Below are positions 42,723 through 45,922 of a DNA stretch of 64,000 bases, one piece after another (the stretch's first letter is position 1; each line of letters starts with the position of its first letter). Source of the DNA: Pseudomonadota bacterium (GTDB taxonomy: Bacteria; Pseudomonadota; Alphaproteobacteria; RF32; CAG-239); NCBI GenBank assembly GCA_918234285.1, contig CAKJXZ020000001.1:1-64000 (forward strand). Direction: 5' to 3'. The notes beneath the pieces were generated by a model, which saw only the letters and a program-made list of their open reading frames with translations, made no database searches and was not told the origin of the DNA. A program made the translations under genes and the position numbers.

Positions 42723-44405
42723 TTAGTTGGCTTTTTTCAAGGCCTCACCCAAAGCCTCTCCGAGCGATGAACCGCCGGAAGTGTTGGAATATTCTTCCAA
42801 AACTTTCTTTTCTTCATCTACTTCGAGAGCCTTGATGGACAAGCCGATTTTAACGTTCTTCTTGTCAACCGAGGTTACTTTGGCTTCTACGGTGTCGCCT
42901 TCGTTGAAGTTAGCCGGATTTTGCAAAGCCTTATCCTTAGAGAGGTCGGCTTTCTTGATTATAGCGTTCAAACCTTCAACTTCAACGGTGATACCTTTAT
43001 CATCGATTTCTTTCACCACAGCCTTTACGGTATCGCCCTTTTTGATGCTGGCGAGTGCCTGATTTACGCTGTCTTCGGAAAGCTGTTTGATGCCGAGGCT
43101 GATGCGCTCTTTTTCAACATCAACATCGATGATTTTGGCTTCGATTTCCTGACCCTTGGTATAGTCTTTAACAGCTTCTTCGCCGGACTTTTCCCAAGAG
43201 ATGTCGGAAAGGTGAATCATACCGTCGATTTCATCGGTCAGGCCGATAAACAAACCGAATTCGGTAATGTTTTTGATTTTGCCGGTAATAACCGAGCCGA
43301 CCGGATGCTCTTCAACATAAGCAGCCCACGGGTTCGGTTGGCATTGTTTAATGCCGAGGCTGATACGACGTTTGTCGGCATCAACTTCCAAAACCTTAAC
43401 TTCAACTTCTTCCGAAGTAGAAACGATTTTGCCCGGATGAACGTTCTTTCTGGTCCAGCTCATTTCGGAAACGTGTACCAAACCTTCAATACCGTCTTCG
43501 AGTTCAACAAACGCGCCGTAATCGGTAATGTTGGTGACTTTACCTTTGTAAATTTCATCAACTTTATACTTATCGGCAACTGCTTGCCACGGATCATTTT
43601 CAAGCTGTTTCATACCGAGGCTGATACGTTGTGTATCTTCGTTGAAACGAATCACCTGAACTTTTACGTTTTGACCAACCGTCAAAACTTCGGCTGGATG
43701 ATTGATGCGTTTCCAAGAAATATCGGTAACGTGCAACAAACCGTCAACGCCGCCCAAGTCAATAAACGCGCCGTAATCGGTGATGTTTTTAACCACACCG
43801 TCTAAGATAGCGCCTTCTTTAATGCCGTCAATCAATTCGGCACGAGCTTCGGCTCTGGTTTCTTCTAAGACAACGCGACGCGAAACAACGATGTTGCCGC
43901 GTACCTTATCCATTTTCAAAATTTGGAACGGTTGCGAAATACCCATAAGCGGAGTAATATCTCTAATCGGGCGAATATCGATTTGCGAACCAGGCAAGAA
44001 AGCGATTGCGCCGTTCAAATCAACCGTAAAGCCGCCTTTAACGCGACCGAAAATGATACCGTTAACACGTTCGCCGGCGTTCATGGATTTTTCAAGATCA
44101 ACCCATACTTCTTCACGGCGAGCTTTTTCACGAGAAAGTACAATGTTGCCGTCTTTGTCTTCATATCTGTCAACCAAAACTTCAACAACATCGCCGACTT
44201 TAAGTTCCGGATTGGTGCCGAATTCGCGCACCGGAATGTTGCCCTCGGATTTGAGGCCGACATCAACCGTAACATAGTCATCGGAAATTCTAACGATTGT
44301 ACCTTTTACAACGGTACCCAAGATGCCGTTTTCACCGAATTGTTCGTTCAATAAATCTGCGAAATTCTCGGTCATTTCCGGCATTTTAAATTCTGTATTT
44401 GTCAT
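42723..44405 (-). CDS. rpsA: 30S ribosomal protein S1
   Basis: Six S1 domains (DYGAFIDLGGVDGLLH, EGLVHVSEMSW); strong high-expression codon bias. Confidence 0.97.
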   Translation of the reverse strand: MTNTEFKMPEMTENFADLLNEQFGENGILGTVVKGTIVRISDDYVTVDVGLKSEGNIPVREFGTNPELKVGDVVEVLVDRYEDKDGNIVLSREKARREEVWVDLEKSMNAGERVNGIIFGRVKGGFTVDLNGAIAFLPGSQIDIRPIRDITPLMGISQPFQILKMDKVRGNIVVSRRVVLEETRAEARAELIDGIKEGAILDGVVKNITDYGAFIDLGGVDGLLHVTDISWKRINHPAEVLTVGQNVKVQVIRFNEDTQRISLGMKQLENDPWQAVADKYKVDEIYKGKVTNITDYGAFVELEDGIEGLVHVSEMSWTRKNVHPGKIVSTSEEVEVKVLEVDADKRRISLGIKQCQPNPWAAYVEEHPVGSVITGKIKNITEFGLFIGLTDEIDGMIHLSDISWEKSGEEAVKDYTKGQEIEAKIIDVDVEKERISLGIKQLSEDSVNQALASIKKGDTVKAVVKEIDDKGITVEVEGLNAIIKKADLSKDKALQNPANFNEGDTVEAKVTSVDKKNVKIGLSIKALEVDEEKKVLEEYSNTSGGSSLGEALGEALKKAN

Positions 44406-44595
44406 ATAAATTTAGTTTTCAAAAAATTGCCAACTTTCATAAAAGCGGACTTGTGCGAGGTTAAACAACAGCCGTTTATAAGCGCACCCTTATCAACAAC
44501 TGCCTTTCTTATACACAAAAAATATTATTTTTCAAGTGTTTTTTCGCGCTTTTTGCAGATTTTTTCGCCGATTTTTATGCATATTAATTTTTTTA

Positions 44596-44623
44596 TTGAT
44601 TTACACAGAAAATTGAATATACT
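44596..44623 (+). promoter_or_regulatory. sigma70 promoter driving a long structured leader
   Basis: TTGATT-16 bp-TATACT, about 265 bp upstream of the porin ATG. Confidence 0.55.
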
Positions 44624-44629
44624 CTCTTA

Positions 44630-44860
44630 CAGATAGGTAAAACTGTCTGAGGTGTGGTAGCCTCTCAATCAGCGTTTGTGCAAGACGTTAATTTTGTACG
44701 CCTTAATGGTTATATGGAAGTATGACTGGAGGGCGGCAAAATAAGCCGTTTTACATAACAACATATATAACTGCAGAGATATATGCCCGTTTAGGCAAAT
44801 ATGTCGCACTATTCTGATTGATAGTTACCAACGTCCAGTCGCCTTATCGGCGGCTTTTTT
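44630..44860 (+). ncRNA. candidate c4-antisense-like structured leader RNA with attenuator
   Basis: GACTGGA (44724-44730)/TCCAGTC (44834-44840) closing helix with internal hairpins; CTGATTGATAGTTACCA (44814-44830) complementary to upstream TGGTAGCCTCTCAATCAG (44655-44672); terminator AGTCGCC/GGCGGCT-TTTTT (44837-44860). Confidence 0.5.
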
Positions 44861-44888
44861 GTTTGTTAACTAGAAAAGGAATATAAAA

Positions 44889-45578
44889 ATGAAAAAAACA
44901 TTATTACTTGCCGGAGTGGCTTGTTTGTTTGCCGCGCAAGCTCAAGCTTTCAATATCAATCCGTACGTATCCGCAAAACTGAAATATTCTATGATGGATA
45001 ACTCATGGAAACCGAGTGAAACAGACCGTTTGATAAATGAAGAAGTTTATAATTTTGAAAAAACTATTGATGTCGATGACAAAGTATTCGGCGGAAGTAT
45101 TGCTTTAGGTTTAAGAGCACCGTTAAATTACGGAGCGTTAAGAACGGAAATCGAATATTCACATAACGGCGAAGCAAAAAAATCCCATACCGATGATTGG
45201 GGAGACAAATTTGAAACGAAATTAAAAAGCCAAGCCGTTTTGTTTAATGCCTACTATGATTTTGACACACATACGGCATTTACTCCGTATGTCGGCGGCG
45301 GTTTGGGATTCGCTCGCTTAAAAGGCTCCGTTAAGTGGGATGAAGATTCTGAGCTTAACAACAGTATAAAACACACAAACTTTGCTTGGCAACTCGGTGC
45401 CGGTGTGGCATATAATGTAAACCAACACGTTGCTTTGGACTTAGGTTATCGTTATATAGATTACGGAGATTTCGACAAGTCCTCATCATACAAATATGAC
45501 TGGGGAACTCTAGAAGAAAAGAATAAAATAGAATCCAAAGCACATGAAATTATGCTAGGTTTGCGCTACACATTCTAA
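44889..45578 (+). CDS. outer-membrane beta-barrel protein (opacity/OmpW/porin-like, 8-stranded)
   Basis: Signal peptide, RTEIEY, NAYYDF, PYVGGGLG, FAWQLGAG, DLGYRY, terminal LRYTF. Confidence 0.88.
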   Translation: MKKTLLLAGVACLFAAQAQAFNINPYVSAKLKYSMMDNSWKPSETDRLINEEVYNFEKTIDVDDKVFGGSIALGLRAPLNYGALRTEIEYSHNGEAKKSHTDDWGDKFETKLKSQAVLFNAYYDFDTHTAFTPYVGGGLGFARLKGSVKWDEDSELNNSIKHTNFAWQLGAGVAYNVNQHVALDLGYRYIDYGDFDKSSSYKYDWGTLEEKNKIESKAHEIMLGLRYTF

Positions 45579-45610
45579 TATAGTCTTATAACTTAATTTT
45601 TTTCATAGCG

Positions 45611-45638
45611 AAAGGTCGGTGTCATACCGGCCTTTTTT
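45611..45638 (+). terminator. intrinsic terminator after the porin gene
   Basis: AAAGGTCGGT...ACCGGCCTTTTTT. Confidence 0.72.
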
Positions 45639-45645
45639 AATTAAT

Positions 45646-45922
45646 GTCATCCTTCAAGGTGCGCTGCGCGTCACCTTGTCCAAGGATCTCGTCTTTCAAT
45701 GCGCCAGCATTGCTTCCGCTTCACACAAAATATTGCGCTTCGCAAAGGTCAGATCCCTTGACGCACGAATGCACCGCATCGTGCGAGGGATGACTTTATT
45801 TTTATATTGTGCGAGGGATGACTTTATTTCTATATTGCGCAAGGAATGACTTTATTTCTATATTGCGCAAGGAATGACTTTATTTCTTTGCACTGCGTAT
45901 CGCGAGGGATGACTTCTATATT
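45646..45922. repeat. REP/RPE-like palindromic element (GTCATCC...GGATGAC) with a tandemly amplified 28-bp right end
   Basis: Element 45646-45794 with internal hairpins; 28-bp units at 45781, 45809, 45837 and 45865, and a partial copy at 45901. Confidence 0.75.

Follow-up and report, generated by a model that had tools for sequence, protein, structure and literature searches.

A covarying, pseudoknotted leader RNA ahead of surface-protein genes of uncultured Alphaproteobacteria: a candidate transcription attenuator from a family absent from Rfam 15

The window (the whole stretch of 64,000 nucleotides analysed here, from a contig of an alphaproteobacterial Pseudomonadota bacterium) carries a highly structured segment between a promoter-like site and the start codon of a small outer-membrane protein (OMP) gene, and the question is what this segment does. 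It had been read in an earlier note as a phage c4-like antisense RNA, domesticated to control the OMP gene and perhaps acting in trans among surface-protein paralogues. The analysis presented here points instead to a leader that acts in cis as a terminator/antiterminator transcription attenuator of the downstream gene, a reading to which we assign a probability of roughly 0.7. The leader is a member of an RNA family of ~150–200 nt that is absent from Rfam 15; 'undescribed' is used here on the strength of Rfam scans only, absence from the literature not being proven.

All of the elements named in the earlier note were found in place within positions 44596–44888 of the window, and the features of the locus are collected in Table 1. 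The RNA spanning 44625–44870 is predicted to fold with −82.6 kcal/mol (z = −5.07), a value equalled in 0 of 200 shuffles. The proposed promoter is present, but with a score of 9/12 it belongs to a kind of site that is common: seven promoter-like sites were found in the 1.5 kb versus 4.4 ± 1.9 in shuffles, so that the match is weak taken alone. Similar −35/−10 pairs are found upstream of other leader copies. The 229-aa product of the gene is a small outer-membrane beta-barrel (PF13505, 8.7e-22; Opacity, 3.5e-12); from a Rickettsia Adr-like match that lies below cut-off, it appears to resemble small adhesin-type barrels more closely than a porin. The earlier observation that phage genes are absent holds, as the neighbours are the housekeeping genes for ribosomal protein S1 (rpsA) and ribulose-phosphate epimerase (Rpe) and a ferritin-like gene, together with a DapB_N-like gene. 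Directly past the OMP gene's own terminator, positions 45640–45880 form a dispersed repeat, of which 22 further pieces (68–91% identity) are scattered over 9 other contigs of the same genome; its depth is raised in a DNA metagenome run (44 versus about 5–6).

Table 1. Elements of the leader and of the gene that follows it, in window coordinates
Feature	Position	Strand	Evidence
Sigma-70-like promoter TTGATT-16-TATACT; transcript start probably ~44630	44596..44623	+	score 9/12
P0, 5'-terminal hairpin, 7 bp	44630..44649	+	>=5 pairs in 112/112 members, stem sequences differ
H1, local hairpin GAGG/CCUC with loop L1 (44655-44661), the 5' arm's conserved half	44649..44664	+	covariation
T1, variable half of the 5' arm ('address'; the target of the earlier note)	44665..44672	+	covariation
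H-type pseudoknot; stem 44673-76/44684-87, loop 44677-81 pairs with 44696-44700	44673..44700	+	88.5% and 85.2% paired
Region 1, forms the anti-antiterminator hairpin 1:2 with region 2 downstream of it	44700..44715	+	83% paired
Region 2 (GACUGGAGG), partner of region 1 or region 3	44724..44732	+	covariation
P4/P5 arm with invariant A-rich internal loop; optional insert 44748-44793	44733..44807	+	covariation
H2, local hairpin ACUAU/AUAGU with loop L2 (44813-44820), the 3' arm's variable half (the anti-target of the earlier note)	44808..44825	+	
T2 (GUUACCA), pairs with L1	44824..44830	+	100% paired, 4/7 pairs compensated
Region 3 (CGUCCAGUC), pairs with region 2 as antiterminator; its 3'-most 4 nt form the foot of the terminator stem	44832..44840	+	
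Intrinsic terminator: 7-bp stem, 5-nt loop (together 44837-44855), 6 T	44837..44860	+	99% paired; in MFE of 105/111 members
RBS AAGGAA (44876-81) and controlled gene 44889-45578 (ATG 44889)	44876..45578	+	229-aa ORF

Scanning of the 64 kb with Rfam 15 at the gathering score returned one tRNA only. Relaxing the threshold to E<=10 over the 601 nt that surround the leader (44400–45000) gave six matches at chance level, the best of which was osmY (18.9 bits against a threshold of 46.9), located on the terminator and RBS; a match to isrK reached 11.7 bits (E = 7). Relatives of the leader are nevertheless abundant. BLAST with the leader hit 108 of 201 genomes within the same family, mostly as two conserved blocks, relative to which the window copy has an extra insert of ~45 nt. 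An exact pattern for the 3' block was found at 118 loci in one-genome-per-species contigs of alphaproteobacterial MAGs, and all 80 of the 80 titled records are MAGs of uncultured Alphaproteobacteria, Rhodospirillales, 'Azospirillum sp.' or proteobacterium, from guts and rumens. Extraction yielded 134 elements, 112 of them unique; 10 loci missed by the 5' anchor regex and 1 at a contig edge were dropped. A covariance model (R1) built from 55 trimmed copies detects the RNA at E<=1e-6 in 109 of 151 genomes, which represent 22 of 23 genera, and gives at least 431 matches; some of these genomes supplied training sequences and so match by construction. The RNA also occurs in four or more further families of the class, BLAST finding it in no fewer than 8 of 401 genomes.

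A genome-wide search found two copies in the window's own genome, and the genes downstream of both can be given: the OMP gene and, behind a divergent copy on a second contig (C10:3799–4010), a gene for an 81-aa protein in which no Pfam or NCBIfam family was found. Small proteins like the latter trail leaders elsewhere (L085, L019, L148 and L057, judged by eye) and may constitute an RNA-linked family. Near the second leader, contig C10 also bears ORFs with tandem 'GAPQKVGG(D/N)F.C..N.LTSL' repeats of leucine-rich-repeat-like character (L150 3–374 and 10013–11047). The congener G002 holds 31 leader copies in 1.5 Mb by the covariance model; four of them lie within 10 kb on its contig C1, in alternating orientation. 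At locus L175 (320–380) only the 3' part of the leader matches (model positions 125–184), the 3' arm of the terminator is missing by eye and the match runs into apparent coding sequence; this copy has probably decayed.

The architecture common to the family comprises a 5' hairpin, a pseudoknot, a conserved P4/P5 arm, two local hairpins and three overlapping helices (1:2, 2:3 and the terminator). Every helix is backed by covariation, which was evaluated in an alignment of 72 sequences with <85% identity (A1) and in an alignment of 30 leader copies of G002 fitted to a covariance model (A3). Paired cells in A1 amount to 96.3% and 90.5%, compared with 31–47% in slid controls, and 0 of 500 shuffles reach the observed scores, a control that overstates significance because many of the sequences are related. 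Within the single genome sampled by A3, pairing is seen in 96.7% of cells and compensation in 23 of 31 pairs, helix 2:3 included; since the model behind A3 holds P4, P5, the S1 helix and part of H2, the counts for P4, P5, S1 and H2 are biased to the structure, helix 2:3 being absent from the model. The divergent copy on contig C10 and a copy from another family keep all helices through compensation.

The two arms that the earlier note had called target and anti-target, 44655–44672 and 44814–44830, are indeed complementary, and form a long-range helix whose conserved half, L1:T2 (44655–61 with 44824–30), has 100% paired cells among the 72 relatives, with changes on both sides at 4 of its 7 pairs. 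One of these pairs occurs as AU in 36 sequences, UA in 25, GC in 8 and CG in 3, and the half as a whole contains 8 G-U cells and 0 unpaired cells. In the variable half, T1:L2, all 6 of 6 pairs show changes on both sides, with 73% paired in the MAFFT register; in an alignment-free test, cognate arms pair in runs of 5–9, versus a mode of 4 for non-cognate arms.

Elsewhere in the fold, the small hairpin noted at 44630–44649 does fold and has an equivalent in 112 of 112 members, with a mean of −9.0 versus −3.5 kcal/mol for shuffles. H1 is 100% paired, its changes being one-sided only in A1 and both-sided in A3, and in H2 3 of 5 pairs are compensated within one genome (A3). The two helices of the H-type pseudoknot (88.5% and 85.2% paired in A1) have 3 compensated pairs each. 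P4 is 99.8% paired in A1, with one pair that is G-U in 58 of 72 sequences, and one pair of P5 shows 20 both-sided changes. Pairing of this kind is specific to the strand, and together with the G-U pair of P4 it indicates that the element acts as RNA and not as DNA. The conserved pairings of the P4/P5 arm are GCGGCA with UGUCGC (44733–38 with 44802–07) and GCC with GGC (44745–47 with 44794–96), and the GCGGC/GCCGT hairpin proposed earlier is accordingly not a conserved pairing. The CATATAT/ATATATG hairpin is real, but occurs only in the optional insert, present by length class in about 35 of 112 elements.

Helix 1:2 is 83% paired with 3 compensated pairs in A1. Helix 2:3 (44724–44732 with 44832–40) is 99.5% paired in A1, with 4 of 9 pairs compensated, and 97% paired in the 30 copies of G002, with 5 of 9 compensated; the terminator helix is 99% paired in A1. 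Helices 1:2 and 2:3 share the same bases and both covary, and in the divergent C10 copy regions 1, 2 and 3 have changed together. Helix 2:3, the closing helix of the earlier note, overlaps the 5' arm of the terminator by AGUC (AGTC in the DNA), so that these two compete as had been supposed. The leader thus contains an antiterminator helix that is under selection and is mutually exclusive with its alternatives, and the description of the OMP gene as preceded by a structured attenuator with a competing closing helix and terminator is borne out.

The coupling of the element to the gene behind it is tight. A co-oriented ORF (>=50 aa) follows 109 of 111 elements, at a median of 26 nt from T-run to start codon (<=40 nt in 101 of 109), which means that the gene must be read through the terminator. 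No promoter-like site lies on the + strand between 44624 and 44889 of the window, and the interval from the end of the T-run (44860) to the ATG at 44889 is too short for the OMP gene to have a promoter of its own there. The terminator thus follows the promoter and precedes the start codon, and no second promoter intervenes. In MFE folds of 111 members, the terminator forms in 105, helix 1:2 in 92 and helix 2:3 in 0, and forcing helix 2:3 costs +12.0 ± 4.4 kcal/mol; nearest-neighbour energies ignore pseudoknots, so 'default off' is a result of the model.

A plausible sequence of events can be drawn from these features. The leader of the OMP mRNA, window 44630–44860, would be transcribed from the promoter that precedes it, and H1 and H2 would pair with each other, through their loops and tails, across about 150 nt. 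By default, region 2 (GACUGGAGG) would be held by region 1 and the terminator would form, so that transcription, judging by the energies, would end about 28 nt ahead of the start codon. An effector that stabilises the 2:3 fold would then deprive the terminator of its foot (AGUC) and allow polymerase to enter the gene; the direction of the switch, like its default state, is thus a prediction.

Metatranscriptome contigs from two libraries of two studies cover 44721–44874 (0 differences) and 44656–44833, with DNA carry-over possible; the leader sequence occurs in RNA libraries, and the contigs show only that. One RNA-library contig extends 14 nt beyond the T-run, which counts against the attenuator reading. 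In two RNA-library runs no contig was found on the OMP coding part (44928–45631), and a DNA run bridges 44645–45336; contigs cannot rank the parts of the locus.

The genes behind the leader were characterised by Pfam scans of 27 proteins in one set and 60 in another (six re-scans). They encode GT1/2/4/8/92 glycosyltransferases, small OMP beta-barrels, PEGA lipoproteins and a BspA-type LRR protein, further a PLD-like nuclease, HsdM/N6_Mtase, VRR-NUC and resolvase-like proteins, an acetyltransferase and Imm_superinfect, and many have no Pfam family. By a crude motif, 14 of 105 distinct products are prepilin-like and 12 have a lipobox. In G002, 27 of the 30 leaders examined (loci L179–L208) precede paralogous type IV pilin-like genes, whose products of about 200–220 aa share a prepilin cleavage motif, have variable C-terminal parts and a mean identity of 38%; the suggestion that the RNA is tied to surface-protein paralogue families is borne out in relatives. 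The pilin-like genes of the window's own genome (C20:47491, C24:80833 and C28:375) have short, plain upstream regions without a leader, so leader control of pilins is lineage-specific. The downstream genes as a group are of envelope and surface types with no metabolic theme, and name no one metabolite; the heterogeneity of this gene set counts against the cis attenuator.

A further point against the cis attenuator is that a simple cis switch does not require what the long-range helix displays, an address private to each copy. Some 15 bp, in L1:T2 and T1:L2, make up the address; outside it the RNA is alike from copy to copy, the differences lying in T1:L2 and in part of L1:T2. All 29 of 29 addresses in G002 are distinct, and recent duplicates there already differ by compensated changes; in nine other sampled genomes the paralogous copies carry different arms too, and apparent orthologues in genomes of the same genus share an arm. 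The diversity is explained by free drift of an otherwise unconstrained helix, and selection for private addresses explains it too; the information content of T1:L2 is as low as that of unpaired loops. The cross-talk in trans between paralogues that had been envisaged finds no support, the arms differing among the paralogues of one genome. For the two G002 addresses tested, no contiguous antisense partner was found elsewhere in the G002 genome, the searches returning only the own site and sense-strand sister leaders.

A role of the address as a specificity code, by which separate RNA molecules recognise one another, is unlikely, if conceivable. In that case a terminated leader, presenting L2 in a hairpin loop, might act on nascent transcripts of its own locus by pairing with their 5' arm, as P4 CI RNA does with seqA, or leaders of the same locus might form homodimers. 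We regard such intermolecular pairing, through which every gene would have its own feedback loop or stochastic switch, as a somewhat less probable proposition still. The perfect covariation of the 5' and 3' arms agrees with it, as covariation cannot separate cis from trans pairing of like molecules, and so do the distinct addresses of paralogues and their compensated divergence in duplicates, with the arm shared by same-genus apparent orthologues. In H1 and H2 each arm would be exposed partly in a loop and partly in a tail, and the RNA left by termination would bear a stable hairpin at its 5' end and a terminator, in a genome that has Hfq. However, the arms are about 150 nt apart in one molecule, so that cis pairing is kinetically favoured; there is no second target downstream and no Rfam kinship with c4 or isrK; and a helix free of other constraint is expected to drift to just the loop-like information content that is seen.

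The cis attenuator also has to be set against a free-standing sRNA gene with trans targets that merely happens to lie upstream of the OMP gene. Promoter, terminator, Hfq and the RNA-library contigs inside the leader would suit such a gene, but the co-oriented ORFs behind 109 of 111 elements, at a median distance of 26 nt, leave no room for a promoter, and the leader has few single-stranded conserved segments; we consider this very improbable.

The origin favoured in the earlier note, a domesticated member of the phage c4 / P4 CI antisense RNAs, is more improbable again. The resemblance to P1/P7 c4 (RF01695) and P4 CI is genuine in outline: a promoter-proximal structured RNA with a link to termination, and an upstream segment complementary to a segment of that RNA near the terminator. 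The c4 and P4 CI RNAs proper are trans-acting products of roughly 77–79 nt, processed by RNase P. P4 CI acts by termination via pairing with seqA and seqC, according to an extract of its description (PMC4825925), and c4 and c4-a1b1 are among the RNAs listed in an extract of Weinberg et al. 2010 (PMC2864571). However, no kinship with c4, c4-2, c4-a1b1 or P4 CI was detected with Rfam 15 in the window, or at E<=10 in the 601 nt around the leader, and the covariance check of 13 other leader loci matched only two tRNAs. Unlike these RNAs, the leader is about three times larger (about 200 nt, with pseudoknots), has no phage context, its neighbours being rpsA, the epimerase and the ferritin-like gene, and does not precede ant, icd or kil. 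The second target proposed just before the RBS finds no support in the family: cognate loops pair with their own 120 nt downstream in a mean run of 6.67, versus 6.32 for non-cognate loops, TGGWAAC occurs downstream in 2 of 112 elements, and a search for cognate partners gave no cognate excess within 1400 nt downstream. There being no locus-specific downstream target, the layout is not target-antisense-target.

A DNA-level element, whether a miniature transposon or a segment able to invert between its flanking repeats, is scarcely credible: imperfect inverted repeats of 17–19 bp do surround about 150 bp ahead of surface genes, a class often under inversion control, but G-U pairs are common and their mirror A-C is not (the P4 pair and the 8 G-U cells of the fully paired L1:T2 being cases in point), the arms are different from copy to copy, the repeats enclose neither promoter nor terminator, and model positions 1–150 are covered in one orientation among the 150 matches listed and in 29 of 29 strong G002 matches.

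As is characteristic of riboswitches, the fold of the leader is conserved and covarying with invariant unpaired nucleotides. A small ligand, which would make the leader an orphan ON-riboswitch, may tentatively be put forward, the alternative being a protein or another RNA; a ligand would be suggested by the size of the fold, its pseudoknots and the invariant bases in its loops. The textbook signal for a pilin riboswitch is c-di-GMP, according to an extract of PMC6200980. In genus g10 the leader is found in 12 of 12 genomes and GGDEF in 1 of 12, and in genus g17 the leader in 3 of 12 and GGDEF in 12 of 12; GGDEF does not track the leader, and c-di-GMP is therefore unlikely as the effector. Independently of the leader, 11 of 12 sampled g10 genomes (98–100% complete) are without GGDEF at E<=1e-5, and nearly all other genera have it; genus g10 may have lost c-di-GMP synthesis. 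Among other candidates, no CsrA gene was found, and an ANTAR search is uninformative, since control genomes gave no match either. A leader peptide was rejected, as the ATG ahead of region 2 is not conserved, and control by a NusG paralogue or RfaH-like protein is disfavoured by a single PF02357 match in a genome rated 100% complete.

Several known systems combine some of the properties of this leader. The c-di-GMP-II riboswitch Cdi-2-4 lies before pilA1 of Clostridioides difficile, and the leader shares with ON-riboswitches of this type, as far as they are described in an extract of PMC6200980, a position in the 5' leader, a conserved pseudoknotted fold, a sensor helix opposed to an intrinsic terminator, many copies per genome, association with type IV pilin, adhesin and surface genes, and read-through as the 'on' state. 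Unlike Cdi-2-4, it matches no Rfam family, is unlikely to bind c-di-GMP and has a long-range, copy-specific address helix without counterpart there. The three overlapping helices, the last of which is a terminator just before the gene, recall 1:2/2:3/3:4 attenuators of the trp type, from which the leader differs in lacking a conserved leader peptide and in a P5 region that varies in length between copies. T-box leaders are likewise large RNAs with many copies per genome; unlike them, the leader has no invariant tRNA-type contact, and the GG:CC pairs of L1:T2 covary. RfaH/ops (JUMPStart) and other NusG-paralogue leaders are, similarly, common to LPS, capsule and pilus operons, and the conserved segment of the leader holds GGCGG, which we take to be present in the ops consensus as well. 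In contrast to the RfaH/ops case, the genome has one NusG-family gene, Rfam gave no JUMPStart match and the leader folds as a large RNA that includes a terminator.

The leader is a well-populated candidate for an orphan riboswitch or attenuator, with its at least 431 matches, 109 genomes and rich covariation, and its effector could reveal what these gut bacteria sense. The address helix raises the question of the coexistence, in a single cell, of many regulatory RNAs that are nearly identical. Were the address a code, each pilin or surface paralogue would have an independent feedback or on/off switch made of RNA only, and a few members of a large surface-antigen family could be expressed by RNA addressing. 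If the attenuator reading holds, one uncatalogued RNA class would govern much of the cell surface in widespread uncultured gut and rumen Alphaproteobacteria, the genes under its control including pilins, adhesin-like barrels, lipoproteins, LPS-modifying enzymes and restriction-modification genes.
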